From positions 434,001 through 498,000 of the forward strand of contig JAQGDQ010000122.1 in the NCBI GenBank assembly GCA_030141605.1: a stretch of DNA of 64,000 bases, written 5' to 3'. Below are positions 1,473-63,183 of this stretch, piece by piece; positions within the stretch are counted from its first letter, which is position 1, and each line of letters opens with the position of its first letter. This DNA is from Tubiluchus corallicola (lineage: Eukaryota > Animalia > Priapulida). The position numbers were made by a program, and so were the translations under genes. A model generated the notes under the pieces. It was not told the origin of the DNA. It made no database searches and saw nothing but the letters and a program-made list of their open reading frames with translations.

Positions 1473-2065
1473 TCACATTCCATATAATCACTTGTTCTCC
1501 AGTTACTTATTTTCTCTTATCATGCCATTGTTTTTTTACCATGAACATTATCATGCCATGTTCGGTGTCGATATATTCTGCAGTAACTATGTACAGAGTT
1601 ATAGTAACCTTTTAACACAAAGTGCTCTAATGATGAAAAGAATCTCTCTAAACTGGACTAAAGATAAAATATTACTGTATTTCTTGAAGAAATTAACTTT
1701 TGTCAAATTTTAAATTTGTTATTGATGATGTTGTCGTGACTTTCAAAGTGTCTTGTGCTGTTGTGTCATATGTTATGTCATGTTATATGACTTAAAAAAA
1801 TCAAGCTATATTGTTGCGTTTCTATTTGTTTTGTAATGAAATTTTTTCTATCTGCGTTTTTCTTATTTACATCTTGTAATTTAGTATCAGTAAAAGTATT
1901 AATATTATACTTTTCCTGGTTGGCATTTTTTAAAAGCATTTAAATGAAAGAGCGAATTTGGAATTGTTTATTCTGACCAACAGTTACTGTACAATTTCCC
2001 TGCTTTCGAGTTTACTTCTCTTGCTAAACTAAAGCACAAACATGTAGTATTTGATAACTTTGTAG

Positions 2066-18143
<16,078 letters not shown>

Positions 18144-19468
18144 TCACAGCTCTTGCTTGTTCTATTCTGACCTCTGGTGACGGGATACTGTACTCTTTTC
18201 TGTCTGTTTGTTAATGCAACATGTCGCACTTCTGGTCATACTTTTTACTAATCATCATTGACTTATGCGCTTCTCGTGGTAGTTTTAGTTACTAACATTT
18301 TTAACCAATTAACATTATTTGTACTGATGGTTTGATTAGGACAGTATGCAAAAGAGGCAGCTTTTTTAAAAAAATACGATAAAATATTCCTCCTTCGTAT
18401 GTGTGATATGTGAAGTTTAATCATGTGTACATTTTTATGAGTAAGTTAAACTTGAAAGTATTTGTAGTATTTGGGTACAACTGTATTTAATAAACTATTG
18501 AGTCCTAGTCATTTGAGTTATTTTTTTGCATACGGATGTATGAAAAACTTAGCAGTTGTTGATTTTTTTATTACAATTTGTGTAGGAAGAGTAAAGCTTT
18601 CAGTCATTGTACAAAAGCCCAGTGGCATTTCTTTTTGCGTTTTATGTACAAAAGTTTTGTTAGTGACAATTGTTTAAGAAAATAAAGTTATTTGTACAAA
18701 GTTTAATTTACCGGTGTACCGCATCGTGCAACATAAACGTTTTTCTACATACAAAATTTTTGTCTACCATTCTTGAAAATCTTGATTTTAAGAATGATTT
18801 TCGATGTTGTATGCAGGTAAACTTGGTGATAGAAAAATTTTACACAGTTACTTTGTGTATAGAATTCTTATTAATATTTAATGTTTGTGTTTGTTTTAGA
18901 ATCACTAGATGTATAATATCATGATTTGCAGTATTATTATTAATATGCCTATAACTACAAGAATGTTATCATCTTTTTTGAGCTTCTGGTGGAAGTACTT
19001 TTGTAAAAATAGCTCATTATCTTATGCATTCACGATGAATTTTGATAATTGTTATATAGAGTTATCATTGTAGCCATAATTAGGTGACTATTATTACACT
19101 GTATCTTAGAACTTGAGTGACAGCAATATGGTTCAAGTTCAGTTCCTGATTTTTCTAGTTTTCAAACTAATTAACTACAAGTGATCAGTAAATTAGCAAA
19201 AGAGTAAGTTTATCTTATTAAAGCTACTTCTGATGCATGAATAATTTCACGTGGAACTAAAAAACTATTTGCGATGATGTCACGATATATGATAGTGTAG
19301 AAAAGTATGCTTAATATCTTGAAGTAAAGGTACGTTGCTTTCATATCATAGAGTAAATTATAGTAAATCAAAAGTAAATTTCTGACACTGCCAATAACCT
19401 GTAAAAAAGAAAAATCTAAGATATTACTTTAAGATCTCTGCAGTACTTTATTTACCTATTTACTGGTT

Positions 19469-19864
19469 CACTCATATCTAGGTTTGCCGGACAAAAGCAG
19501 GAAGACATCGGTCCGAAATTTTGCCGACTGTTCGTATTCACTAAGCTAATGCAGTAGGCGCCGTGTATTAGACTCACGGTAATGTAGAATCAGTTGTCTC
19601 AAAAATGTCTAGTACGGGCCTATGCAAAAGTAAATAAAAACTATCGGCAATTGACTCGAATAACTCCGTATCATTGACTCTATATTTTTTCTGCACATGC
19701 ATAAATGGTGTAAACAAAGTGACGGCCTGCGAATTAGCATAGATTAAAGTCATAGATTAGCATAGGACTGTGTCTGTAGTATGCGGGACTTTTTAACGGT
19801 CGAGATTTTGTCCAATTCTTCCAATTTCTGTAAAAGCTAGGTCCGGCAAACCGTGATATGAGTG
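19469..19864. mobile_element. MITE with 24-bp TIRs
   Basis: CACTCATATCTAGGTTTGCCGGAC ... GTCCGGCAAACCGTGATATGAGTG (2 mismatches). Confidence 0.75.
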
Positions 19865-19996
19865 TATTCAAAACGTCCCAAGTTCAATTCCCGGACAGGA
19901 AGTTAACTACTTATTCTGGACGAAAGCTATTTCTAATGAAAAATACTTTGAGATATTAAAATATTTAATTATTTATCTATTATTCTGCATTGTTAC

Positions 19997-19998
<2 letters not shown>

Positions 19999-20034
<36 letters not shown>
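19999..20034. repeat. (TAT)n microsatellite
   Basis: Direct reading of the sequence. Confidence 0.9.
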
Positions 20035-20035
<1 letters not shown>

Positions 20036-21114
20036 TTGTTCTTATATATTAGGTCCGTCAGCATTTTAAATTGAGTATGTGTAGCTATGTTTTAGTTGTG
20101 TAGAGAGAACATGTTTTGTTTATTATACATGTTCTCTGCAAATACAGTATTCTCAGCTTTTTGCGAAAGTGATTTTGTTTCTGTAAATAACTTATATCTA
20201 CCAAAAACTAGTCTGTGCTTTTATGATAATATTTAACAAAAAAAAATCTGTTTTGGAATTTGATCTTTGTTGAAGAGTTGGAATATCTGTGTAAACTGGA
20301 AACATGTCTAGTTTTTAACTTTGGTATTTCCTTGATTGAATTTGTATTTGTTTTCTTAAAAATCGTTATTTTGGATTTTCTCGTGATCATTCACTTTTTT
20401 GATTCAGAATTTGTTTTTGTATATATTTGTTATTATTGTTGTTTGTTATTTACTCTGCAATTGTAAATAACTTGACGCATCTAAAATATGTTGTTAGCAT
20501 TGTTATTTCTCTGTCTAAGCACATAACTACTATTTTTATTTAACATTTAAATTGTCTTACATGTAACCTGCGTAGTACTTCATTTGAAGACGAATCATTC
20601 TTAAACCCTGATGTATAATGAGTGCTCTCGCAAGTGACAAATTATCTACTCATTTTAAGGGTTATTCCTGTGTAGGAAAGGCATGATTTGATCAGTAATT
20701 TTTGGGGAAAGGTTATTTGCAGTGATATGTAATTTTGCATGTCATGTTGAACGGTTAATATACATGTCTGCTATTGTAATGTTACTGTGCAATTATGTAC
20801 AATAACAACAGGATTGAAGAACTATTGTGCATATCCAGGGTAGTTTTAAAAGCAACAATTGCATCAGGTTTTTCTTAAAAAGAAACTGTCGAGATTCGTT
20901 TGCAGTTTTTCTGCATGTTTCTGGCATTTTTTCGAAAGTCGTCATTAATGTATCTTTTTAATTGACATGTCTGTTGCATGTATTATACTTCATGTTTAGC
21001 TATTGTATTACCTTAAACTTGCTGAAAATCGTCAAGGAGTTTGTCTTGGAATCATGTTATAATAACACTGTTCTCTTGTTGAATAATCCTGTTCACTTGT
21101 TTGTTTCTGTAAAG

Positions 21115-21183
21115 GTGATTGGCGGTGAACGTTCGGACCGTTTGATGCCGCTACCGCTAAGCAAGCGACCGACGGATCAGGCA
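21115..21183 (+). CDS. PMCA: PMCA alternative cassette exon in the CaM-binding domain (VIGGERSDRLMPLPLSKRPTDQA, 23 aa)
   Basis: Pyrimidine-rich acceptor ttgtttctgtaaag|GTG and donor GCA|gtaaga; 69 nt, phase 0/0. The peptide resembles the VIGG...TDQA insert I recall from insect and nematode PMCA splice forms. Confidence 0.8.
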
Positions 21184-21870
21184 GTAAGATATCGTGATCT
21201 TATTCAGAGATTAATGGGATGCCATCTTTGTCACTTGGTTCCTAACACGGGTCTAATTATGCTCTACTTTCAATTCAAAAATTGCGTACTTAATGCAAGA
21301 ATTTGATGCTGTTATGCAAGTACAAAATTGAAAATCACACTAAATAATGCGATGTACAACAGCTTTATTTGTATTCTATTTTGTACTGCTAGTTTTTTTC
21401 CTCATGGCTTCATCATTTTCAACTATTCACACATTTAGTGACGCTTGTTGATCTAGCTCAAATTGTGTCAAATTAGGACCCGTGTAAGGACCATGTGGAG
21501 CTTTTGTCTATTAAGGTGTGGTGCCATTTCTTTGCCGGCATGCTGTTTTTTCCAAGCTTCCTTTGTCGTGGTTGTGCTTTTATTTTCTTGATGTATTGTT
21601 TATTTCAGTTTTGAGGTCTCGTCCAGAGTTAGTCGATAAAAAATTACAGAAATAGGAAAACTAATTATCGTCTTAGTAAAGAGACGAGTAGAAAACAGGA
21701 CAGTAATATTTACTATAATGAATAGTGATGAAAGTTGATCTTACTTTTTTAGACTTTGAGCAAAGCAGAGCGTACTTTTTAAAGAATGTACCAATTGTAG
21801 TGACTTTCTCTGTCCCTCCCTTCCCATCTCTCTCACATTCTCTTTCCCTTTCCTTTTCTATTTCTTCCTT

Positions 21871-22043
<173 letters not shown>

Positions 22044-25000
22044 GTCAATATGGTATTGTAGACTAATACTTCATTAATTTTATTATTTCTTGATCTTACA
22101 ACTGTGAGCTTGCGCTGCTCCTTCCTTTTGTACTTTTTCGTCATTTTTAGTGTGTAGGCTAGCTTTATTCAGACTAGTTTTTGTTCTTTACTTGTATAGT
22201 GGGCATTTTGAATCAATTCTTTAATTCTTTTAGACAGTAGCGTAAAAGTAGAGTAGCTGTTGTTGTTTTTTTCATTCATTGCGTTGTCATTCATCACACA
22301 ATGGAGTTTTTTGTATTTTTACATGGAGATGAATATCCGTAAATCTTTTTGATACCTCTATATTTTTTACAGCTTGTGAGCTTGAGTACAAAAAATGTTT
22401 TCAGTTTTTAATATTTATAAACAAATCTAAAGGGAATGTTGCATTTATTGATGTCAATGCAAAATTTCTGACTGTCAGAAAAAAGATGCATAGTGTAGGG
22501 ATGTCAGGTCATACAAATCTGGCGATACAGTAACAATAATCTTTTTTTTGGATGATGCAGTACGATACGATAAAAACGATACTGAAGTTAGACAATTTTT
22601 TAACAACAGAAGAAGTATGATTAATAATTAAAATTATTAAGTGTTTCAGTGCATTCAGTGCTTCATACCTAAATGGCTGCTAGTTACGAAACTCAACTTT
22701 GTTTGTCATAGTGATTCTTAAATATGTAAGCAGCGATAGACAAATAATTACCTATGCAAGCTGCACATGACTGGAAAAGTGACACTAAAAATACAGTACA
22801 GGGTAAATAATGATAAAAACAAATTTTTCATATCTATACGATAATCGATGATTATAGATAATAATCGATGCTTATTGTTAACTTATCTAGCGCAGTAATG
22901 CTAAAATATTTGCTCTTTTTTTTTAGTGACTTTCAAAACACACGTGATCAAGCACAGCACTAACTATTATTCCTGCTCAATCCTTTGATCCCAACCTTAT
23001 TTTTGCGTGTCTGATAAGTACTACGTAAGAGAGATTACTCTAGTAAGGCACACCCATTAATTTCTGTTTAAAAGCGTATCTTTTAAAATTACACACGTGA
23101 GCATGAAAGCACGTCATTCCAATAAACTTCTCATTTTCTTCTTAAATATGGTGCTTGTTTAACAGCAGGTTTCTAGAGTAATCTAGGGGTTTTTATCAGC
23201 TAAAACTGAGCTAAGAAATCATGATTGATTAATCACTTTATTGCTATTCTGGGCTGCAGTAAATGTGATATTATTTTATATTTTATTTATTTTTCATTTT
23301 GTTGTTATTTTCATGAAGCAGTGTCTTTCATTTACATGCATTGTGTATTGTATGTCAAAGAGAAATATCAAACGTCATTTTTTTTTGCATTAATGTAAAT
23401 TCTTTGTCTGCTGTCCTTAGTAGTTGTCTTTACTTAGTGTTTTATATCACTTTAGTAATTTATACGCTTCAACATAATGTAGTAGATTTTATAAGTAAAC
23501 TTAAAAAAGTTAATTAAGAATACTGGTTTAGCATAGTCTATAATTAATAGCATGTGCCAAATTATTTCACTGTTAAAATCCAGTTGTCGTTGTTCGAAAC
23601 AAAGTATTTTACCTTGGTAATTAAGACAAAAAACAAGCCTTATTTGTTTTACGTCTAGATTTGGCTTAGTTTTTGTGGCACCAGGTTGCAGCACAATACA
23701 CTGATAACAATCGGGTTGACATGAAGCACCCATTGTTTTTTTGTGCATTGTGTTCCTTTATTTTCCATTGTTTTATTGAGGTGAACTGGTTTTCTTACAG
23801 GCGATTGCAATGATACAGACACAGGTACATAACCCTGGTATTGCATGCGCCCCGTTTTACTTTCTTTTTACCATATATGTGCATAAGCCAAATCTCTTGT
23901 TGACATTTCTGCCGTTCAAGATCTGCGTTTGTCTTAAGCAACTGCTTTTTCTGCAAAATATGTGCTGATCATAAACATTTTCACTTACTTGAGTTCACAA
24001 ATTTGAACTATATGTTTAAAGTTCATATTCTTCGATGCAACTTTTACATGAGTTTAAAATTTTAAAATGGCAGAAACATCATGTCAGCACTTTGTATGTA
24101 AACCTATTGTCAGTGACCTATTAGAAATTTATGAAGCTTGGCTTGCTAAGCTCTTGCTATGGCGGCAATACCTCTTTTATCTGCTTTTGTATCGTTTCTT
24201 TGTGTTCCCTAGTAGTTATTAGCATTTTTTATATACTGTTTATCTTAAATATGTCATGTTTATACTGCTTGTCTTATGAGGGAAGGCAAAGGTGTACTTG
24301 AACTTTGACCTAAGCATGCCTGTAACTGAAATACATTTTCTATGACATGTTATCTTCTACTTAGTAGAAATGTTTTGGTTTCGTGCATTTTGAAGTACAC
24401 ATATAACTATATAGTAGTACTTCCTAAGCAGTATTTAATGTCTTTTAACAACTGAAATATCTTGACTTATTTCTTCTAGTCTTTTTCTAGTTATTCAGAA
24501 ATGCCTGAATATGATATGCATGTAATAAGACTAATATTTTTACCAATACTGCATTTTTACAAGTTTGAGCAGTGAGATGCATTAAGAGCATTAGATGGGC
24601 ATTATGAAGTAGTAGTCTTTACCTCTGTAAGAGTGTTTTGCTTAATATAAGAAGCATTTTAATAGTGTAGTTAGTTTTGGATGATTTTCATATCGTATAT
24701 GAGGGTAATTTTTTTTGTTTAAAATAGTTATTTGAGTATTTTGAATTCTAACGTTACTCTGTGTAAAAAAGTAAGTCATTCATTCAGCTGGCAAATGAAG
24801 TAAAATGCATTAAATAAACTGCTAAATGAAAGTCAGGAAGAATGTTAACGTATTAAATTTCGCTTCATGACGTTATAAACTGTCACAGAAATTTCCCGTT
24901 TGATAATTTGCAAATATGGCTAAATAGTTTTAATTTGGTTACTCTGCTTTTACGACGAGCACTTGTGTGGTCAGTTCAGGCAGGTGTTTGAGTCTCTGTC

Positions 25001-25585
25001 TGACTAATCTTTCGTCCCAACTGATACCCTTGTCCCAGTGTACACACTTGTGTCTTGCACTTAAATTAATTGATCTACAATAGGAATCAGTGCATCGTTA
25101 ATTCATCTTCATTCACTGTAACTGTTTTGTAATCTATTGTTTGCAATGAATTCTAGGTCTATTGAGACCGTTCAGTTTTCACTGTTAACCCGTGTGTGCA
25201 TCCACTGTTGCAAAATGCCATGTTTTCTAACATTTAGTGTCTAAACATTAGTTAATTTCTACCATTTTGTAAAATGATCTAATGGGCCAATCAGAGATGG
25301 CCGAGCATTGTTCAGAAAGATTTTTTGGGTCTATAAAGCTTCGTTGTGATTTTTAATTTTTTGATATTTCAGTAAGAGGTTTAACATGTTTGTAATAATT
25401 AAATTTTAAGTTTAGTAAAATATTGTGTTGATTCTTAGCAATATTGTTAATCATGATTGGTTTTTGCTTTTAACCTTTGCAAACAATTGACGATTCTTCA
25501 CGTTTTTGCTTAAAATAAACATTTCAGGATGAACATTTTTTGACAAAAAAACTTCCTGATTTCCAGCTTCTTTTCTTTCTTTCAG

Positions 25586-25780
25586 ATTCGCGTTGTTAAC
25601 GCATTTCGCATGGGAGTAGATTCGAACCGATACGAAACAAGTCAACTAGCAAACAATCCTTCCTTGCAAAACGTTGTGACTCATCTGCAAGCAAAACGTC
25701 TCTCCCTTATGCACGGTTCTCGTCCGTCGGGCGAAAGCGTGCCCACGACAAGTGCACCCTCGGCAGCCACACCTGTCTGA
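25586..25780 (+). CDS. PMCA: PMCA distal alternative terminal exon (IRVVNAFRMGVDSNRY...SAATPV*)
   Basis: Strong acceptor ttcttttctttctttcag|ATT. Begins with the canonical second half of the CaM-binding domain (IRVVNAFR), runs 64 codons to TGA and ends in T-P-V (class I PDZ-type motif). Absent from the ORF track. Confidence 0.88.
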   Translation: MRVVNAFRMGVDSNRYETSQLANNPSLQNVVTHLQAKRLSLMHGSRPSGESVPTTSAPSAATPV

Positions 25781-31562: not shown

Positions 31563-34500
31563 TTACCCAACTTTCTGCTCCATCATCAACTTCATGTCAT
31601 CAAGTGGATGTAGATTATCTGTAGGTTGAATGTTGTATTTGTCTACAAGAATTCTCAACACATTGGGTGTCAGGAAAGCCGGCAATTTGGGACCCAGTCG
31701 AATGTTCTTGATTCCCAGATGAAGCAGAGTCAACAGGACAGCAACAGCTTTCTGTTCAAACCAGGAAATAGCAAGGGATATAGGCAGAGAGTTGACATCG
31801 GTGTTGAAAGCATCAGCTAAAGCCGAAGCGACGACCACAGCTCCATATGCATCATTACATTGTCCCATGTCCAGCAAGCGAGGGATTCCTGACTCACCTA
31901 ACATGCCCAGGTCTTTGTAATTAAACCTGTAGAATGAAAGCAATTTGTACAATAACTTTTTCAATTACTTCTCTACATCTTCGTCTGCTTGCAGTTTAAT
32001 CAACTGTGTTGTGTTTCCTTATACGACCTGACATGCAGCAAGCTAGAAACTGGTGTGCAACAACACAGTCCTACTTAACTGGATTTTCATGAAACATGAC
32101 TCTTTGCCAAGGTGTCTGTAAGATGATGTCACTGACCATCTTAGCATCATTCGGAGGTGAATACACACACACACACTCTATGAGGCAAACAGCAAGAAAC
32201 AGTATGGCTACTAAAACCACCAACAACGAGTATTTTTTGAAGCAGTTCACCCAAGAAGCCTTGGAACAACAGTTCTTAACTACGATTGACTAGTCACCAA
32301 TCAGAGCACCTTGCTACTCGGCAACACATTTTCCTCAAAATGATGTTGACGAGAATGCTCAATGACTTTATGCTACCAGGATTGCAAAGCTTCATATACA
32401 ATTCTGACAGCCTTTCACCATCAATCAAATACAGTGCTTTTAAATTCTTATTAAACAGCAGCAGCTAAAACATTTGTAAGATAAGCAATGGGTGGCTGCA
32501 AATAGTTCAAAATTAGCAAACATCTTTTCATAGAAGTTATTACTGTGATGCTAGTGTTGCAACAGATATTTGATAAGCAAGAAATTACAGCATTGAACTG
32601 AAATCTGATCTGACCTATACTAACAATACAACTTTGAACAAGTCTTAAGTGGGTTAAGATCATTGAAGTCGGAAACAATGAAGTAACTGCATTACTCAAA
32701 GCAATAAAACGCAATACACTTATACACAAAAACTAGAAAAACATTTCCCACAGTTACAATATAATACAATATAATATATGTAAAGTAAAAATTCACCTGT
32801 ACTTGGCACAGCCCAAGGTCAATACGACTGTATCTTGTGGTAAACTTTCTACAAGTGTGGAGTAATAACTTCTACGATTTTCTGAGCCATCGCATCCGCC
32901 CACAACAAAAATTCTTTTAAGTCCTCCACTTTTTACTGCATCTATTACCTGAAATGTATACAAAGTGAAAAAACATGAGCTACATGTCAGTGTTAGCATA
33001 GCATCCAAGTCATTCTTTGCTATTCTTTTTAGTTTAAGAACAAACATTTGTGCTGTAACCTGTGTACATTATATACAGTAAAACTGTTACAGTGTGTAAA
33101 TAATTTATAAGTAACTACTTCCTATCTGAGAAGTTGTGGGATCGATTCCAAGTTGGGTATCTTACTCTGACAGACGAGTAAATTCTGAGAGTAAACTCAG
33201 AAGCGTGAACGGTTTTGCAAGTTCTGCCGGTAAGTTTTTGCGAACTTTCCCAAGAGTTGCTGCAAATTCTCTCCAACAGTAAGCATGAGTTTACACTCAG
33301 CAAAACTCAAGACAGTTCTTGCAAAGCCGTTCACACTTGCGTGTTTACTCTCAGAGAGAATTCGCTAGAGGAAACTTGATAGTCTGAATGTGCCGTAACT
33401 GTGTAGTGTTTTCGACAATTATGACATGTCACAATAAACACAATAAACTAGAACATTAAAGCAAAAAAATGATGCAAGTGTAATACATAATCTATTTTAC
33501 AGATCAAACCGTTACAGCAAAATGTGAGATTTAAAACATAAATGAAAATACCCTGAATGCTTGGCCTCCTCGAAAATTACTTTAAGGGTGTGCACAAACA
33601 ATATGTAATCTGTCCCTGTTGCTTCAAGAGTAAGATTACAGTCAAAATTATATTAATTCACCAATATAATTACTTGGGATTAAAACAAAACAACAAGTGG
33701 GTGTGAGTACCCAGCAATAGTGATATGATATGAAGCACATTTCACTATTATTTCTAAAAGCAAACTTTATTAAAATCACAAAATAAGCAAATATCTATAA
33801 AACACGCTCTAATTTAATACCAGAAATTGGACCAGTTGACTGCAGGCATTCACAATGGTGGATATTTACCTTTTTTGCATAAACTCATGAAGGTAAAAAG
33901 TTGTAAAAATACTGTAGTGATATGCTTCATTTTCTAATTTCCTTTTTAAAAACAGTGTCTACAATCAACAACATTTTGAGACATGCATACCTTTCCGGCA
34001 TTAGCAAGCAGGAAGTCGTGCCCAAATCCTACAGTCAACTTCCCGTCTCTGTCTTTGTAGGAATCACAAAACTCCCGAGTATAGCCTTCGCAGCTCATAG
34101 CAGAGGACAGCAGGTCTGCCATGTGATCGTCACGTGATAAATCCAAGTGTTTACAGCCTTTAACAAATGGGGAATTCTCATCAAGTGACAATTTCAATTT
34201 TATATGGATATGTAACAAAACAAGGTTATGTAACATTAACACAAATTATGTCAGCAAACAACAACAAAATTTGCGTGTAATTCTTAGGTCACGATAATGA
34301 ACCTTTTACAGTACACAACTTTTTCCATTTTGCTGTTGTTACTCGTGCAGGTGTTGTCCAAATGTTTATGAAGAGAAGTTAACAGCTCCGACATTTTGTA
34401 AAGGATGGTAATCACAATTTATAAGATAAATATTTGTCATGAACAATTTAATTAATGAAATTACCTGACCACCCGACATCGTTTAGGGTGAAAAGTCTGT

Positions 34501-37500
34501 CCTTGTACGAGTGATGTGGTTCAATGATGCAGTTTGTTGTCACGACGATCGGACCGGGAAATCTCGGAAACTCAAATTTCTGCAGCATCCAAGCTCCTCC
34601 AAAATGTCCCACCAGATTCTGAGAGATTGCAGTGATTAGCGACAAATCATCAAATTCTTTAGCCAAATTAAACTCAAGGAATGGAATTTGCAAAAACTTG
34701 AGCTAATTTGAACTCAGCGCTCTGAATGTATAGACAAACTGTATTCTATGCAATTCAAATTTTTGAATAAACCATTTTGTTTTTTGCTTCTTTTATTGAA
34801 AATAATATGATATATAAAAAAAAACAATTGTATTCTAACAATGTAACAAATATGACATTCTCAAGTAAGAAGCAATGAAATTTCTATAACAGCACCGTCA
34901 ATCCATAACATGTCTAACATAATACCGTGATGACAGATTTTCATACTACAATATCTAGATCACAAAAGGCAACAACTTTTGCTATCTTGGTCATGCGACC
35001 ACATCAGCCTAGACTAACCTTAATGAATTTACCTTATATTTGCGCAATTTGGGATATCCGTGAGCTGGCAGCATCTCTCCGTGTGTATAAACATTGATAC
35101 CAGTTTTCTCAGTAGCTTTCAGTACAGCCAAAAGATCAACAAGATCATGGCCAGACACAAGGATCGCCTTAAACGATAAAGGAAAAGAAGAATTATAATC
35201 GAGCTATTATTAAAACGTACAGCTCCTAGGAAAGTGACTCTCGAAGATATCGCATGATACAAAATGCATCACTTTTCATGAGCACATTCATGTCTAATGG
35301 CACGTTCAGATTAGCGAGTTTTCAGGTCTTGTGAACTTGCTCAGTCACTCGCCAAGTAATTTCCAAGCGTGATCAGACTAGAGAACAAATCTTGCTGCGA
35401 GTTAATCTCCGAAGTGTCGAGAGTTAACTCGACAAGGCATTCATACTAGCTTGTAGGAAATCAACTCGCAGCACCTGTTACAGAATTTGCAATAACTTGC
35501 CAACAGTAACTCACAAAGCAGTTCACACGTGTGAGATTGCTGTCACGGAGGAAACTCGTATCAGAAACTCACTAATCTGAATGCACAGTAATAGGTAGTG
35601 ATAGTACTATGAATACGTTTAACGCTTGGCTGTTAACTTCCTTCAAAGAAACAAAATAATCCTTTTTGTGGAGTTTAGTGCAAGCACACTGCAAACTAGA
35701 ATCCAACACTCAATGGTAAGGTCTACGCAAAGCTGATATTTGTGGCAAAACAGGATCCTGGCTAAATATAAAGGCTAACATTCTAAGATGAGGCACTAAA
35801 ATATGACATAAAAGACATATTTCTATTCAACTAGGACTACAAAACTAATTTACGTAGTGAGAGACTAGTGTTCACCAGTCATTCACCAGTCTCTCACTAT
35901 GTAAATTAGTTTTGTAGTCCTAGTTGAATAGAAATATGTCTTTCATGTCATATTTTAGTGCCTCATCTTAGAATGTTAGCCTTTATATTGAGCCAGGATC
36001 CTGTTTTGCCACAAATATCAGCTTTGCGTAGACCTTACCATTGAGTGTTAGATTCTAGTTTGCAGTGTGCTTGCAGATACCATTCTTCTGAAAAATCTTG
36101 TAAAATTTTCGGGATTTTGTAAAATTTTCAAAAATTTAATTCACTTTGAATCATAAATATTGATAAAAATAGCTTGAGACCACATATCTTCATCAGAAAT
36201 GCAGGAAGTTACCCCAACCATTGATCTCCTTACTAATTCTTGCAGTTATTATATCATGCAATCAAGTTTTCAATTAAAACAAGAAGTAAAAGACAAAGAT
36301 CAGGAACCAATGACAGAAATTTCAAATTATACCTTTCCAGGCACAGGAGCTGTTGAGACCTCGTGGGGAGATGGAGTTCCAAACTGGTCACGATGACCCT
36401 TGTCCAGCAGTTCCATGCCTTTCAAATTTACTTCACCAACCCGCAAAGCCAATCCCAGGTTCGTGGCCAAATTGGTCCTGTCAGATTCTGCACTAGTTTC
36501 TAAGAAATCGACTGCCTAAATGTTTTTCACAAAAATCGGTAGAAATCATTCAACTCATTATAAAGTTCTTCACTGGGGAGTACCATGAATGGAAAAGATG
36601 GCTGCCTGTCTGATTATTGACAGCTGTTCGTAAAGCATGAGCTAAACAAATGTTCATTCGTAATGTTAACTTACGGAATAGTTATCATATACTGCTGGCA
36701 GTTTCTATACTCACACTACTTTTACTGATGTGCTGAATTGATATGAAGGATCAGTAGCAGTTTAGATGGATTATGCTCAATAGGATTGACATTTTTGAAG
36801 TTTTTTTTTGGTACGATACTGCCAGAGAATCAAACTTATAAAATGACTTTTCAGAAAAAACACGCCAGGCTGTTTTACCAACATATTGATCTATTCGATA
36901 TATTTATATTGAAATATCCACGTAATTATTTTCCTCTGCATGCAATATCAGTTACAATTTAAATCACAGTTATTCAGTACTACTATGCTTTGTAACTTTA
37001 GTTCCTTAAATACAGCAATAGCAATGATGCAACTGCTGTGAACAAAATCTTAAACTGAAAATCTTTAATCCTGCTGATCGATACTGAATGGCACGGAACC
37101 AAGTTGGTTTAACCGTACATCATCAGCAGCTGGTAGTCTTGAAATTTTACGAACTTTTACAAAGATCTTTCAGCAAAACAGCCATTTCTGTGTGAGAGCA
37201 AAGGAAGAAGCTAAATGACCAGATCAAATACGATTACTTTTATGAGATCTGATGATGTGATTAGTGTGTGTAATCAATTAATAACTGGCCAACCTGCAAA
37301 AAGAATTTTGTGCATAAACTCACAACACACAACCACCCACGCCCCACTCACAACACACCATCCACACTAACCCACTGCACCAATCATAACACACCATCCA
37401 CACCGCACCACACCTCCTACGCCATACAACAACACTAGTGTTGATATTGAAACCAGTGTAGACATGGAAAACAAGTGTTAATATGGAAATAGTCAAACAG

Positions 37501-40500
37501 TCATACATTGGCAAAGCAAATCATCTTTAATATTTTACACAATCTTTCATTTAATTTATATTATTGATTTTACTTGCATATATATATATATATATATATA
37601 TGTATTGCCACCCACACCATAGCACACCACCCACATAAAATGAAATGCAACCTTTTGCAAATAGTTACCTCAAATACAAATGCAGAAATGTCTCGTGACT
37701 CTTGTCCCAGCAAAGCTGCATGTCTGGCATAAGTCGCCATTCCCTTCAAGCCAAAGATAATCATCTGCCGAACTCCATGCAAATCTGCTCCGTAAATGGC
37801 TTCTTCAAGGCGCAGTCCAAATTTCTTACCTGCCAAAGATGTAAAAGCCACTTTAGTGAATCGTCCTTATTTAGAGTATTAAAACTGATTATTTAAAACA
37901 AAATCATGATTACATTTCAATTTAAAAACGACTGCCAGTGCAATATACTTATTAACTTCTAGTCCTGATGTCGTTTTCAAAGTAAAACGCTTTTAATATT
38001 TTTAATAAAGACATTCATATATTTTTAACCAAATGACTACGAGTGTATGAAGTTAATCAATGCGAACCTGGCTAGTGAATGGACACATGACCGATGGGTT
38101 CAGTACTGTTTTGAGGTGTCTCAACTGCCACGCTATATAAATATTCAATTTGTTTAGAGGACAATATATATCAAGTCAGTTCAGTGTTTGCTCGTAACGG
38201 ATTTTCCTTGATGAGTTCTGGTCCTGCCACAAACAGCAACACTGAGCAGACCATGTCATTAAGTGCATGATCCCAGTTTGCAACACGCCAAACTGTATAA
38301 AAAAATGACTCGGCTTACAAGGAATTTGTTATAACATTTTATATGCGACCAACTGGTATCATTGCTCAACAAATGAAGAAGCTATCTCTTCCATTTCTAC
38401 AAAGTTTTCTACAGTTATAGAATCCACAGTACTTTTCCTTTTTTTAAAAGTAAAATTGTTCATTTATTATCCACAATAAGTAACTCTTCCTGTGACTTAC
38501 CTTCTTCTGCAAGAGTATGTACATCTTCCGCAGGAGGGCGATATGTGGCTGGACCTTCAGGAAATGCTTCAGGTTTTGCTCCTTGTTCCTACGAGGTAAA
38601 CCGTTTTCAGACAATTAGTGTTTAAAAGCACGTGAAAGGAATTTCATACTCTCACAGATTTATGACACATGTATAAGCTAAATTCAGTTAAGCAGAATGA
38701 CAGCGTTAGTCATTTTATGGTGAAACTGTTATGGTCTGTTTATGACACGAGCATTTCTTAATATAATGTCTTGTCATTGTTTACTTTAAGGTCTGTTCTT
38801 TATAAGATAAATCAAAATGAGACAGATCCAATCATCAGTGAATAGGAATGGAAGTGTAAATTACTAGTGTGATATATTAAACTGATGTGATAAAGGTAAT
38901 TGTCAAGTATTTTTATTATAATTATATTAAGTCTGACCTTGCAAGTAGAAAAATATAGTTCTTTTACAGCATCCCTGTGTTTGAGTGCCTCAGAAATGTA
39001 GACAAGAAACCTATCTGGGTCAAAGTTCACATTTGTTAGTGTGCTGCAAAAAGAAACAAAAGTAAAATTAACACAAGCAGAACAATAAACAAACAAAAAC
39101 GCTGTTTTCTTTTTGGAAATAGTTACCCAAAATAAGCCTAGTGAACATTTTGGACAGATGTTACCACAGAATTCGAGCAGTTTTAAAAGATTTAAACCAG
39201 ATCCAAAAAAACAGAAAACTTCGTCTACAGATTTCTTAAAATTCACGAAGCATGATATTGAAGTTGTGTCCAAGCAAGCGAGCGGCGTAGAATGATGCGT
39301 GACAATAAATGTGATGGTCAATAAATCTAGTTCCTCCTTAATTCCATTGTTTGAAATAAGAATAATAATTTAGATAATTTGGAATAATTTAGAATAATTT
39401 AAATAATTTGGAACAATATAGAATAATTTGGATAATTAATTGTGCCAGACAGACTTTAAGCAGAATGTATAAGTATTTTAGAGAGCACCAATTGAATTAT
39501 GATCATCGAACTTTATTGTCACTGCCACATTCTCATGTTTGATCACACTATATATTGTACTAATTAAAATTTCTGAATGCTAATTCATAAAATTTTCAGA
39601 ACTACTTGAATCATAAACTACTACAGCTGTTGCTGCTAATATGTCAAGTTACATACCAAAACAATTCCAATGAATTTAATCAGAGAACATTTGTACCAAA
39701 TTAAATTAATTAAATGAACTTACAATATCTACTCATATTAGCATTTATTGCAGTAATTTGATGGCTACATTGCTGTGATGCATGCAGTTCATCATCATTC
39801 ACAAAGAATATGCAAACTGTGGTATGTATTATTGGTGTGCAAATAACAGAATTAGTCAGTGTAACATATACATTGGCACACAATGGATTATTGTAAAACA
39901 TACGCTGATAGTCTCTTATACGTTGGCATACAACGTGAATGGGTAATATAAAACTATGATCTATAATTTAATGCTCACTCTAAAAGAACAGGTCTAAGCA
40001 ACTTTAAAATACTCATTAAAGGGATCATGGAAGTTCTAAAGTACTTGCTCACCTGAACAATGCTGAGTACATAAAATCGTACACTTCATTATTAAGATGT
40101 CTGCCCAGCTTGTTGACACGATGCCCGTACAAGGCCAGACCACGCAAGATGTACGTCAACAAATCTTGCAGGTGCGAAACCTCAGCAGTTTTTCCGCAAA
40201 CTCCGATCGTAGTGCACCCCTTCCGATTCTTGGTTTGTTCACATTGAAAACAAAACATGTCTGAAAATAAGTAATGAAAATCATAAAAAATCTTGTGCAC
40301 AAAGCTGTTTTATTACATTGGTCAATTCGTAATGTTTTAACTAGTGAAAAAATATGTGAGCCAATTAGAGCTATGTGCTCTGCTGTGCTGCAGTAGCACA
40401 AATAAGATAACCTCACTAAATAACATAGAGGCAACAATTTGTTTTCTACACTACCCACAGTCATGAAAGCTAATTCATTCGAAAATCAGACATATGATAT

Positions 40501-41341
40501 ATGCACGATTTCAGCTGTAGTAGACCGGACATAACTGACTGTGGCACACGTACAATATCAGTCAAGTAAATTGCAAGTGAATAACAGAAAGAAATGGACA
40601 GTCAGTACCATTGCGACCACTTAGCCACAACTTACTAGAGCCTAGTTATTAGCCTTTTCACATGGCAACAAGAACTTTTGTTAAACTTACATTTCATACT
40701 AACTTTCATAGTAATAATATAACTCTCTTATTTTCATATTAATGAAAATAATTAGTTAACTAACTAATTAATAAAGCAAGATTGATTATCAAGTTATTAA
40801 TGATATAAGTCTTCCATCCTAAGGAGAAATTTTATGACTAGCATGGAAAAAATGAATAAAAAAATCATTCCACTGCCAGATTCTGAAACCTGTGCCTCTC
40901 GCTTAGAAGTTGCCAAAAATGCAATAGAGTTGGCAAGAATACCTGCTAGAAAGCCACTGGTTCAAATCCAGATTTAGAACATTTTTTACTATTTCTTTTG
41001 CAAGCCAATCATAAGTTCACCTTTACATAATAGAAAATTCATAATGTCATACAGATTAAGTGAAAATTAACAAAACTTCTCAGTATTTCACTAAGAAATT
41101 TGAAAGACATGAGATCTGAATAGCACTAGAAGCTGCGCTACAATAATCATATAATACCTTCAGTATCGGCATTCGCTGCTCTGGCTTTTGTGGTATAGCT
41201 TCTCAACTTAACCTCTCCAAGATTTCGCAAAATAGTCCTGTTAAAGGGAGCCACGTGTCTCTCTAAAACACTGCATCGCCCTGCTGTTAGATAGCGCACA
41301 GTTGTGGCACGTAACAATGCTCTCAACAATGTGGAAGCCAT
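31563..41341 (-). CDS. hcp: Hybrid cluster protein (HCP; hydroxylamine/NO reductase, prismane), complete, ~633 aa. Exons: 41341-41158, 40260-40053, 39043-38938, 38588-38501, 37829-37669, 36515-36333, 35167-35033, 34618-34465, 34157-33991, 32948-32797, 31926-31563
   Basis: Ten GT-AG introns join into an open 1902-nt CDS. Motifs: [24 protein letters not shown] (Cx2Cx8Cx5C), [115 protein letters not shown]. Confidence 0.96.
33160..33398. mobile_element. Partial MITE copy related to 35295-35591
   Basis: Shares the 3' end: caaagccgttcacac...gaaacttgatagtctgaatgtgccgtaa versus caaagcagttcacac...gaaactcactaatctgaatgcacagtaa. Confidence 0.55.
35295..35591. mobile_element. PIF/Harbinger-like MITE in an HCP intron
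   Basis: Imperfect TIRs GCACGTTCAGATTAGCGAGTTT / AAACTCACTAATCTGAATGCAC, flanked by TAA on both sides. Confidence 0.6.
35679..36075. repeat. Long near-perfect inverted repeat (192-bp arms, 13-nt loop) in HCP intron 6
   Basis: 35679-35870 is the reverse complement of 35884-36075 with about 5 mismatches. Confidence 0.95.
39361..39438. repeat. Degenerate ~9-10-bp tandem repeat (GAATAATTTR)n
   Basis: About 8 imperfect units. Confidence 0.75.
41158..41341 (-). other. Exon encoding a putative mitochondrial targeting presequence of HCP
   Basis: [24 protein letters not shown]...[10 protein letters not shown]: 9 Arg and only 2 acidic residues in the first 54 aa, rich in A/L/S/T, with an R-S-Y-T motif resembling an MPP cleavage site. 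Splices in frame (phase 1) to the D-MFCFQC exon. Confidence 0.75.
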
Positions 41342-49647: not shown

Positions 49648-60263
<10,616 letters not shown>

Positions 60264-62111
60264 CTGCAAATGAAATGGTAAATAATAGGCTCATAAAAAA
60301 TAACTGTTAAATTTAAACAAACTTTATACTGACACTTTTTTCAGCTTAAAAATGTATATTGATGATAGGATACTCAACCAGTGGTGGTGTAGTGGTTTCA
60401 TTTCACATATGGACTAAGCCAGTAAAAGTGTACCAGCACTTAGACCAAGCTATCATTTTTCCAGCGTATTAATGTCTGATTTTGATGATGTTAATAACAT
60501 AACGTCATATTTAAAGAATATTTTATTGCATCAGGTGTGGTAATTTAAAACACACACCATAAGACTACATAAGTTAGTCTAAAATAGTTTAACGAGTATA
60601 TATATATATATATATATATACATTAAAAGAGAATGTTTAACGCTAATTGGCAAGAATAACAGTCCACGAATTAATTAGATAGGTGCCCACTGGTATAAAG
60701 AAATAGTGTTGGCTGTGGAATCCGTGAATTGCATGTCTTGTCATCGCATGTTGGTTCAGCCTCTTGGGTTCTTTCCATCTTTCCAGTCGAGTCATTGCCG
60801 GCACATTATAGAATGCCAGCTCTATTGAGTGTACCTTATCTTCGACATTTTCTAAATATTTGCAGAATTCTCGAGTCCGAGGTACTTATAAATTTCAATG
60901 CTGAGCCTTTCTATATTACACTTTAATGTCATGCGGAATGTCTCCAATTAATACAAAGCCAAAAACAAGTATTTAGTGATCCCTCCTAGCCTCAAAGCTC
61001 AGCATAAAATACCAGCTACCAATATACAAGCTCCAACAAAAACGAACATTTTTGGCAGTTGCTCCAATAACATTCAAGTAAAATTTCTTTGACATTAATA
61101 AAGATTTTAACCTTCAGAATCATGCTGGCAAAGATAAGAATCTACAGAAACAAACTTTGATCAATGTGATAAACAGAAATGACAACCAAAAGATCAAGCA
61201 CATCTTTGTTTTGATACCTTTTCAGCATCAAAGACAACAGTTTAACATTCAGATTGGATGACCTCAGGTAATGACAGCTCAAGGTCACCTTCAATCTTAT
61301 ACAATTTTAATTGTGCGAAACAAGCTAATGGTTGCCCGCGGCAACAAATGACATTACCTATACCTGTTATTTCGATTATCACATCAATCAAAGCGTCAGG
61401 GCGAAAAAATGACTGAACCGGGATTGATCCAGAGACCTTCATGGCTCATTAACGAATGCAAGTGTTTATATTCTCATGTTACTGACAAATTATATATTTT
61501 TGCATTAACTAAGAGATATCGGTGATCATAAGTGCCTATTTGGCCTAGTGGTTGTGGTACTGGTCATGAGCAATCCAAAGTTTTTCATCAAAATCCAAGC
61601 TCATTCCTGACTTTTTCACTTTTCCTTCCTTTCGGTCAAGTTTGGTTTCAAAAATTTACAAACTGTGGGTCCACTTTATCTCACCCATAAGATATGTCTC
61701 TACAAAATAACGTATTGAAAAAATTTCTCATCATAACTTCTAAAAAGGATCAAGTTATGTTTCTAAATAATACCAGCAAATATTTAAGATATTAGTCAAA
61801 ATATACGGTTTACAATTTAGAATGAACTACTCAGACAATATTTACAGAAATAATAATTTAAAATTTTGTCAGATTTGGTTGGTCTGTGGCTAACCTATGG
61901 ACAAAATAAACTTACTACTATTATTTAAATGGAGTCAGAAACTGGTAGCAAACTACTAAATGCCACAGTAAGTCTAACTAGGTAAATCACACAGAATACA
62001 CGCAGTTTTCCATCAGCAAACTAGCCTCCAGTTAACAATGACTTTACATTGCTTCAAGAACGATCCATTCATCTAAATATACTTCTTGCGCAGTCCCACA
62101 ATCTGGCATAG

Positions 62112-62211: not shown

Positions 62212-63183
62212 ATGAATTTCACGGTGTCTGAGATGAATGTAACCTTGACAAACACGGTGGCAGATGGAAAAGGTACTTCAATTGCCACCATCATTTACAT
62301 GATCGTGTTTTTAACAACAGTAATCATTATGGCAGGACTGAATACTTTTGTCGCTGTGGCTGTTATATCTGTGGAATCGATACGGACCGGGGCAAATCTT
62401 CTTTTAGCAAGCATGGCAGCAGCTGGAGGTATTTTTGATATTGTCGTTACGACACAAACTATTCGGGGTCAAATCCTTCTGAATTACTCAACAGAGCTTT
62501 GTGCTCTTACGGTGTTCGTCAGTTACTGTGTATTCCTACACATTATCGTAACTGACGCTTGGATAACAATCGATCGCTTCATTGCCATTGTCTATCCTCT
62601 CCATTACCCACAAATCTGCACAAACAAGCGTTTTACCATACTTATTGCTTCTACATGGATATATTGCATTATTGCAGGATTCATGGCTACGATACGCCTG
62701 ATGACGGAAGAACCACCTGCAGAAATCCCAAAATGCATGATTAGCAAGTACGTTACTCCTTGGTTTGGCTATTTCTTCCGACTGCAGTTCGTTGCCTCCG
62801 TAATAGTTATGATATTTGTTTATGTGACAATAGCCAAGATTGTTTTACAGCACAAACGAATGATAGTACCCACTGGACAAGAGACGTATCTGAGCATAAA
62901 GGAGAGACTGAAAATATCAGCACCGATGTTCATGCTCACGATAGGAAACGTGTTACTTATGGGCCCAAAGTTCCTGTTTACTACTCTAATGCAGGCCGGC
63001 ATCGTAAAACGCAAAGGAGCAGAAATAAGCATGTGGAGACGCATCACTCACGTTACAATTACCATATGCATGATTGCAACAGTTGCCACATACTTCTGGA
63101 AGATAAAAGAGTTACGCAATTTACTAAGGCGAATATTTTGCAGAAAAAATCGTGTTAGCAACCAACGCTTTGTCCAAAATTAA
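62212..63183 (+). CDS. Intronless divergent class A (rhodopsin-like) GPCR, 323 aa, orphan
   Basis: Seven hydrophobic segments; N-terminal N-glycosylation sequons (NFT, NVT); TM1 Asn; TM3 Cys and ITIDRFIAIVYPLHY (DRY-like); TM4 Trp; ECL2 Cys; helix 8 KELRNLLRRIFC. Confidence 0.9.
   Translation: MNFTVSEMNVTLTNTVADGKGTSIATIIYMIVFLTTVIIMAGLNTFVAVAVISVESIRTGANLLLASMAAAGGIFDIVVTTQTIRGQILLNYSTELCALTVFVSYCVFLHIIVTDAWITIDRFIAIVYPLHYPQICTNKRFTILIASTWIYCIIAGFMATIRLMTEEPPAEIPKCMISKYVTPWFGYFFRLQFVASVIVMIFVYVTIAKIVLQHKRMIVPTGQETYLSIKERLKISAPMFMLTIGNVLLMGPKFLFTTLMQAGIVKRKGAEISMWRRITHVTITICMIATVATYFWKIKELRNLLRRIFCRKNRVSNQRFVQN

Follow-up and report, generated by a model that had tools for sequence, protein, structure and literature searches.

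The sequence considered here (the window) is the 64,000-nucleotide (nt) stretch at positions 434,001 to 498,000 of contig JAQGDQ010000122.1 from the Tubiluchus corallicola assembly, and the subject of this analysis is a gene for a hybrid cluster protein (HCP) on its minus strand. The gene runs from an ATG at 41341 to a TAA at 31563 in 11 exons of compatible phase, with an in-frame stop located five codons upstream of the ATG. All ten introns, which are 307 to 1165 nt long, have GT-AG boundaries, and the coding sequence of 1902 nt gives 633 amino acids (aa) plus TAA, free of internal stops. Translation of the minus strand thus bore out the gene model of the first-pass annotation, which had proposed 11 exons, ten GT-AG introns and an open protein of ∼633 aa.

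Exon 1 (41158..41341) contains the start codon and a 61-codon N-terminal extension, a predicted mitochondrial presequence. Exon 2 (40053..40260) begins the HCP domain with MFCFQC and carries the four ligands of the cubane [4Fe-4S] cluster, C65, C68, C77 and C83, which form a Cx2Cx8Cx5C motif spanning 19 residues (codons within 40252-40196). Exon 3 (38938..39043) encodes the STLTNVNFD helix region, and exons 4 (38501..38588), 5 (37669..37829), 6 (36333..36515) and 9 (33991..34157) complete the translated reading. The hybrid cluster has its ligands spread over the remaining exons: H317 and E341 in exon 7 (35033..35167), C385 in exon 8 (34465..34618), the persulfide-position C481 and C509 in exon 10 (32797..32948), and C536 and E570 in exon 11 (31563..31926), which also contains the conserved K572 and the TAA stop codon. 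Exon 8 encodes in addition H360, at the position of Asn287 in the Desulfovibrio vulgaris HCP.

All seven hybrid-cluster ligands, as defined from the solved HCP in PMC10502027 and the alignment with D. vulgaris, are therefore there, with a spacing of 24-44-96-28-27-34 compared with 24-44-86-28-25-34 in a solved HCP. The complete ligand set and every motif named in the first-pass annotation were recovered, with one amendment. It had listed both the Glu and the Lys of WFEQK as ligands; E570 is a ligand and K572 is conserved, but the equivalent of K572 does not appear among the seven metal ligands of PMC10502027. The seven ligands and K572 are retained in 26/26 animal-clade proteins (see below), and the four cubane cysteines in 25 of them, the exception being an N-terminally truncated record.

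When the exon peptides were searched singly against Pfam, Prismane (PF03063) scored above the cut-off in 6 of the 11, confirming the family, and below it in exon 5; exons 1, 3, 4 and 9 gave no match to this profile. A weak Toxin_TOLIP match to exon 2 (E value, 0.02; below the cut-off) was rejected as a chance result of cysteine spacing. Exon 11 matched the HCPs of the PDB with an E value of 1e-33 and CO dehydrogenases (CODHs) at 1e-6 or weaker. Identity as a Ni,Fe-CODH was rejected on account of these far weaker matches and of the presence of E341 and E570, since the CODH C-cluster has a Cys at the position of the HCP Glu and lacks the seventh Glu (PMC10502027).

Within the HCP family, the 19-residue cubane motif is that of most of the 75 prokaryotic proteins compared, among which enterobacterial class II proteins have 23 residues. 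The four-residue cubane insertion of class II is absent from the window protein, and the gene has PMCA and SLC23 as neighbors and no adjacent hcr. The internal deletion of ∼100 residues typical of class III is likewise absent: the HCP middle region is present, and 571 aa follow from M63, compared to ∼428 aa for class III. For the fold, the Owenia orthologue, 65% identical to the window protein, was modelled in its place. Its model has a mean predicted local distance difference test score of 79, with low confidence at residues 1-61 and in part of the cubane loop (70-84); the best Foldseek match was 1e1d, the D. vulgaris HCP, with a template modelling (TM) score of 0.93 and a root mean square deviation (rmsd) of 2.3. 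By every sequence criterion tested, the window protein is a class I HCP.

The HCP gene lies between two animal genes, as had been proposed, and both neighbors were corroborated by protein or profile matches. On one side, a PMCA gene (approximately 1948..25780 within the window, plus strand) is convergent with HCP, and one of its exons matches human PMCA1 with an E value of 2e-26. On the other, upstream of HCP and on the same strand, there is a gene for an SLC23/NAT-family transporter (approximately 49648..60340, minus strand), an exon of which matches the Xan_ur_permease profile with an E value of 1e-20. The GC content of the HCP coding sequence and that of its third codon positions (0.455/0.427) are close to the values in six exons of the neighboring PMCA (0.451/0.441).

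Two further observations concern the surroundings. PMCA apparently has two alternative last coding exons, 17757-18143 and 25544-25780 (plus strand), each of which extends the calmodulin-binding region (VVRAFR and VVNAFR frames), an arrangement that we take to recall the site-C splicing of vertebrate PMCAs. An intronless open reading frame (ORF) of ∼323 aa for a rhodopsin-family G-protein-coupled receptor is found at 62212-63183 on the plus strand (7tm_1; E value, 2.8e-17).

The introns of HCP contain transposon remnants, as the first-pass annotation had stated. Intron 6 harbors a foldback element resembling a miniature inverted-repeat transposable element (35679..36075; no strand assigned), with a length of 397 bp, 192-nt arms that are 97% complementary and a 13-nt loop. 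A 58-nt stretch of intron 4 (38225-38282) is 72% like the arm end of this element. A high-copy dispersed short repeat, internally inverted, is represented by copies at ∼33184-33360 (intron 9) and 35310-35530 (intron 6). In sequencing run X1 (see below), two intron bins reached depths of 130-158, compared with 0-19 in the other 28 bins, and many loose ends were found at these repeats.

Two sequencing runs with reads from the gene, X1 and X2, bear on its expression; neither is recorded as RNA, and our taking X2 for RNA is a guess, the species label being the same. Run X1 covers 27 of the 30 bins into which the gene was divided, introns included; the source sample may well be this run. From run X2 came six contigs, five of them 90-95% alike, and the pieces listed within the HCP gene fall on exons 5, 6, 8, 10 and 11, plus two short repeat matches. 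One X2 contig runs from exon 6 into exon 5; it leaves out 1156 letters and has 3 between the two pieces, matching the 1153 nt of intron 5, and a loose end of the same contig fits the 3' end of exon 4 at 24 of 28 letters (comparison by eye). This exon join and this loose-end match support the splicing of introns 4 and 5, in a species or population related to this one. Direct support thus covers 2 of the 10 introns. Of the 27 X2 differences in exons found among the 40 listed of a total of 82, 22 are synonymous, compared with 23% expected at random.

The distribution of the gene was studied with exon 11 and the Owenia protein as queries, supplemented by cluster look-ups, and the best 120 of ∼8000 scored candidates were considered for each. 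Among the matches listed, named orthologues occur in at least 12 genera of three phyla, namely annelids (Owenia, Helobdella, Lamellibrachia and Ridgeia), a brachiopod (Lingula) and bivalves (Mytilus, Dreissena, Mercenaria, Mactra, Solemya, Sinanodonta and Potamilus), with 51-65% identity to the window protein for the named ones that were compared. Owenia is its nearest relative in the trees, with support of 97-99. No named cnidarian, ecdysozoan, deuterostome, gastropod or cephalopod HCP was found among these best 120 of ∼8000, many of which are unnamed, and none of 120 partial shorter homologues scored best against an animal-clade sequence. In several genomes the animal proteins are auto-annotated as hydroxylamine reductase-like. 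To regard HCP as a trait of this animal is therefore incomplete, as the gene belongs to an old lophotrochozoan family. What surprises is the group of hosts; the protein itself is a class I HCP of the ordinary sort, already auto-annotated and not unique to its carrier.

Some records deserve separate mention. Two unnamed proteins, P0132 and P0080, branch as sister to the whole set of named animal HCPs (support, 99-100); their source may be a further animal phylum or a close relative outside the animals. In the database gene model of Helobdella P0128, additional sequence is present at precisely the site of conserved intron 2, which suggests a mis-called splice site. More than one HCP record exists for Sinanodonta (P0013/P0408), Mytilus galloprovincialis (P0246/P0251) and Lingula (P0007/P0404), some of them apparently on one chromosome or scaffold; tandem duplicates or haplotypes are possible.

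Intron positions were compared in 20 loci with several exon-like matches, drawn from 80 metagenome loci. In the 16 animal-type loci, which are mostly close kin of one annelid type and hence not independent, 46 of 48 junctions coincide in codon and phase with window intron 2, 4, 5, 6, 7 or 9; of the remaining two, one is unmapped and one lies elsewhere. One bivalve-type locus (L048) has introns 5, 6 and 7 in common with the window gene, and single-exon ORFs of tubeworm and bivalve clusters begin or end at introns 2, 7 and 9 (by eye). Intron 1 is compatible, yet one codon off, in four annelid-type loci, whereas introns 3, 8 and 10 were not seen in the annelid-type loci examined. For their part, four amoebozoan-type or other protist-type loci had 0/6 junctions in common with the window gene. 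Since the positions are common to annelid-type, bivalve-type and window loci, the gene and its introns are, by this comparison of sequences, older than the annelid-mollusc split. One annelid-type locus (L008:1062-2973) shows an extra 1411-nt phase-1 interruption at window codon 525 that is not in its relatives, either an intron gain or an insertion.

Phylogenetic analysis comprised a 176-row FastTree, a 70-row mixture-model tree and approximately unbiased (AU) tests of bacterial groupings on a 47-row subset under LG+G4. The animal-type HCPs formed one clade in both trees (support, 100 and 99, respectively), and in the 70-row tree 43 eukaryotic or unnamed eukaryote-like rows were split from 27 prokaryotic rows with support of 91. 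The named relatives nearby are the holozoans Salpingoeca, Amoebidium and Pigoraptor, together with Fabomonas, Gefionella, amoebozoans and green algae; a clade of animals and holozoans was neither recovered nor rejected (p-AU, 0.22). Grouping the animals with the top-scoring bacterial set was rejected (P = 7e-86), as was grouping them with a proteobacterial set (P = 0.002). The tested groupings were picked after the tree was seen and the prokaryotes were drawn from 2 of the 64 parts of the genome collection, outside which a closer bacterial donor may exist. On this sampling, the nearest relatives of the animal HCPs are other eukaryotic HCPs. As to how animals came by the gene, we give about even chances to inheritance from early eukaryotes with many losses within animals, a vertical descent that fits the HCP inferred in the ancestral eukaryotic mitochondrion (PMC13777428). 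An old transfer to animals from another eukaryote is a serious, if somewhat less than even, prospect.

These results also decide whether the gene belongs to the animal at all. That it is a contaminant or a pseudogene, that the contig is chimeric or that the gene came recently from bacteria is a reading already largely refuted, to which we give next to no credence. No listed contig of X1 or X2 spans the whole gene, but the canonical introns, the junctions common to the 16 animal-type loci, the spliced contigs of run X2 and a codon GC matching that of PMCA speak against this reading, as do the AU tests. The earlier exclusion of bacterial contamination thus stands, and the gene is an intact, native nuclear gene of an animal.

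Exon 1 codes almost exactly for the extension ahead of the usual MFC start of the family, and its composition fits that of a mitochondrial presequence, a point that had been missed in the first-pass annotation. The first 40 aa contain seven R/K and one D/E, for a net charge of +6, compared with a maximum of +5 over 531 windows of the mature part; the call for the window protein rests on this composition. An extension of 55-72 residues with the same make-up was found in 21 of the 22 animal-clade proteins that could be parsed (23 examined). The triplet R47-S-Y49 resembles an R-2/R-3 cleavage site, and exon 1 would be cleaved upon import near residues 47-50. In the tubeworm Riftia, a complete host ORF annotated as hcp (len 640; PMC6918071 Table S1a, rows 1922-1923) is assigned to mitochondria by four of five tools (TargetP, CELLO, WoLF PSORT and SLP-Local); we infer its orthology to the window HCP from the 639-aa Ridgeia protein, not from the Riftia sequence itself. 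Microscopy places the HCP of Acanthamoeba in mitochondria, and its level increases under hypoxia and anoxia (PMC13632651). The window product is thus predicted to be, and probably is, mitochondrial.

The function that we favor, by a small measure and on the strength of ligands, presequence and published work on the family, is that of a mitochondrial enzyme reducing nitric oxide (NO) to nitrous oxide (N2O). The product would be imported into mitochondria, whose iron-sulfur assembly machinery would load the [4Fe-4S] and hybrid clusters; a matrix donor of low potential, either a ferredoxin or a flavoprotein using NAD(P)H, would pass electrons via the cubane, and the hybrid cluster would turn 2 NO into N2O. 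Whenever oxygen drops or varies, such an oxygen-independent NO sink would shield complex IV as well as Fe-S enzymes. NO reduction was among the HCP functions listed in the first-pass annotation, and it is the best-supported one according to the introduction of PMC10210160. In hypoxic Mytilus gills, NO rises 1.6- to 2.4-fold, a change linked to complex IV inhibition, and is stabilized because less oxygen is available to oxidize it (PMC6411825). Mytilus carries the HCP gene, and an oxygen-independent mitochondrial NO sink would fit this setting. A link of the animal HCP to hypoxic or sulfidic habitats is plausible.

The same enzyme might instead reduce hydroxylamine, act as a peroxidase or serve more generally as a redox electron sink. 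Names given in databases point this way, an antioxidant role was proposed in the Manila clam paper (PMC5499747 section 9), and algal HCP4 has been proposed to oxidize ferredoxin (PMC8003979). Nevertheless, the millimolar Km and low turnover with hydroxylamine and peroxide were judged incompatible with physiology, and an archaeal class I HCP showed no detectable peroxidase activity (PMC10210160), so that we regard this group of functions as quite improbable.

In Riftia, host HCP was detected at ∼0.04 %orgNSAF in the plume and ∼0.01 in the vestimentum (PMC6918071 Table S1a), and the plume is richer in respiratory-chain protein (PMC6918071); because of the latter, the HCP pattern may follow mitochondrial content. 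The plume enrichment would also suit a regulatory role in an exchange organ, that is, a mitochondrial S-nitrosylase or NO-signaling enzyme whose main task would be to capture NO and hand it on to the thiols of proteins, not to destroy it. Transnitrosylation has been reported for the Escherichia coli HCP and speculated for an algal one (PMC10210160), and NO has signaling roles in hypoxic mussel gills (PMC6411825). The S-nitrosylase role is, however, described as debated (PMC10210160) and has no specific pointer in the sequence, and we consider it unlikely.

Several points weigh against mitochondrial NO reduction. Riftia HCP was undetected in the trophosome, home of the NirS-bearing symbiont (PMC6918071 Table S1a) and considered hypoxic by the authors of that study (PMC6918071), and it was the same in sulfur-rich and sulfur-depleted worms (PMC6918071 Table S1a), a pattern that does not fit simple induction by anoxia or the clearing of symbiont NO. 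In the same table, DeepLoc assigns the host HCP to the plastid, and four of five tools do not place a shorter isoform in mitochondria. Within the 64-kb window no gene for an electron donor is found next to HCP, and the electron donor of class I HCPs was not known in the literature as of 2023. A methanogen expresses HCP without a known NO source (PMC10210160), and therefore other HCP functions exist. A scan for hypoxia elements was uninformative, with five sites in the 2 kb upstream and one in intron 1, compared with 1.58/kb window-wide. Finally, no activity, electron paramagnetic resonance or localization data for any animal HCP were found in the literature.

A further reading is a substrate not yet described, linked with the sulfide or nitrogen chemistry of animals that live in sediments and at vents. 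The named holders include vent/seep tubeworms, Solemya and infaunal clams. In the trees a long stem leads to the animal clade, whose proteins mostly carry His at the position of D. vulgaris Asn287, and the function of HCP in the absence of NO was left open in PMC10210160. On the other hand, the gene is also held by a freshwater leech and unionid mussels, the same His occurs in green algae and Amoebidium, and the Riftia levels are independent of sulfur status (PMC6918071 Table S1a), which leaves this reading with little to commend it.

Full-text literature searches, with most subscription journals outside their scope, found no paper describing or testing an animal HCP as such, in concordance with the statement in the first-pass annotation that no functional characterization of one was known. 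The published range of the enzyme is narrow: a 2006 analysis predicted that HCP would stay mostly microbial (PMC1484493), and two structural papers of 2023 placed it in bacteria, archaea and unicellular eukaryotes only (PMC10210160 and PMC10502027). Animal sequences have nevertheless surfaced. A Riftia plume cDNA (expressed sequence tag EF648468) was discussed as HCP in 2007 and judged a possible bacterial contamination (PMC2175520). Because of the orthologues in tubeworm genomes and the plume-enriched host protein, that cDNA is probably the worm's own gene. The Manila clam genome paper reported a hydroxylamine reductase/CODH family in the clam that is not in oyster, snail or octopus (PMC5499747 section 9), and the Riftia proteome includes HCP in its supplement without mention in the main text (PMC6918071). 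The MitoTOL paper gave no match to 'hybrid' or PF03063 in the eight supplements searched; its 673-species set includes Lingula and Helobdella, and animal HCPs may hence already be in it. What stands out is an HCP family that is old, conserved and probably mitochondrial, occurs in three phyla of animals and goes against the stated range of the enzyme.

The finding extends an anaerobe-associated Fe-S-O enzyme into animals, where it is conserved, expressed and probably mitochondrial in three phyla, and it gives invertebrates that tolerate hypoxia a concrete candidate enzyme for removing NO independently of oxygen. A broader proposal can be built on it: annelids, bivalves and brachiopods would have kept the anaerobe-type NO reductase of the earliest eukaryotic mitochondrion, lost by most other animals, and their own mitochondria would make N2O and lift the NO inhibition of respiration without oxygen. 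We offer this as a possibility that is tentative and, on balance, rather doubtful. Animal-associated N2O emission is usually assigned to gut and shell microbes; if the proposal were true, some of the N2O released by worms and shellfish would come from the animals themselves and not from microbes. The question of whether animal tissue itself adds to the emission becomes directly testable, and since farmed mussels and clams carry the gene, functional tests are practical. The result also bears on the proposal of an HCP in the mitochondrion of the last eukaryotic common ancestor (PMC13777428).

Compared with the known class I HCPs of D. vulgaris, Desulfovibrio desulfuricans and Methanothermococcus thermolithotrophicus (PDB 1e2u, 1e1d, 1gn9 and 8cnr), the window protein has the same fold, as judged via the Owenia orthologue, at ∼40% identity. 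It shares with them a cubane motif without the class II insertion, the seven hybrid-cluster ligands and the lack of a reductase gene alongside, and differs in its 11 exons, its 62-aa presequence-like extension, the His in place of Asn287 and its animal host. The class II Hcp-Hcr system of E. coli, the source of the evidence for NO reductase and S-nitrosylase activities, has the same hybrid-cluster ligands; its cubane motif is four residues longer (23 versus 19) and hcr is adjacent, both features being absent from the window locus. Other parallels are found in the HCP of Acanthamoeba castellanii (PMC13632651) and in HCP1-4 of Chlamydomonas (PMC8003979), which are nuclear encoded and organelle targeted, as is predicted for the window protein. 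Algal, amoebozoan and holozoan proteins are among the eukaryotic HCPs within which the animal clade nests, the Acanthamoeba sequence itself being outside the trees. These two hosts differ in being unicellular, in having PFOR/hydrogenase pathways and in that localization or induction has been measured in them. Further counterparts are the auto-annotated hydroxylamine reductase-like proteins of other animals, direct orthologues that form one clade with the window protein (support, 99-100) and have introns in common with it; compared with the annelid-type loci, the window gene has three further introns (3, 8 and 10).

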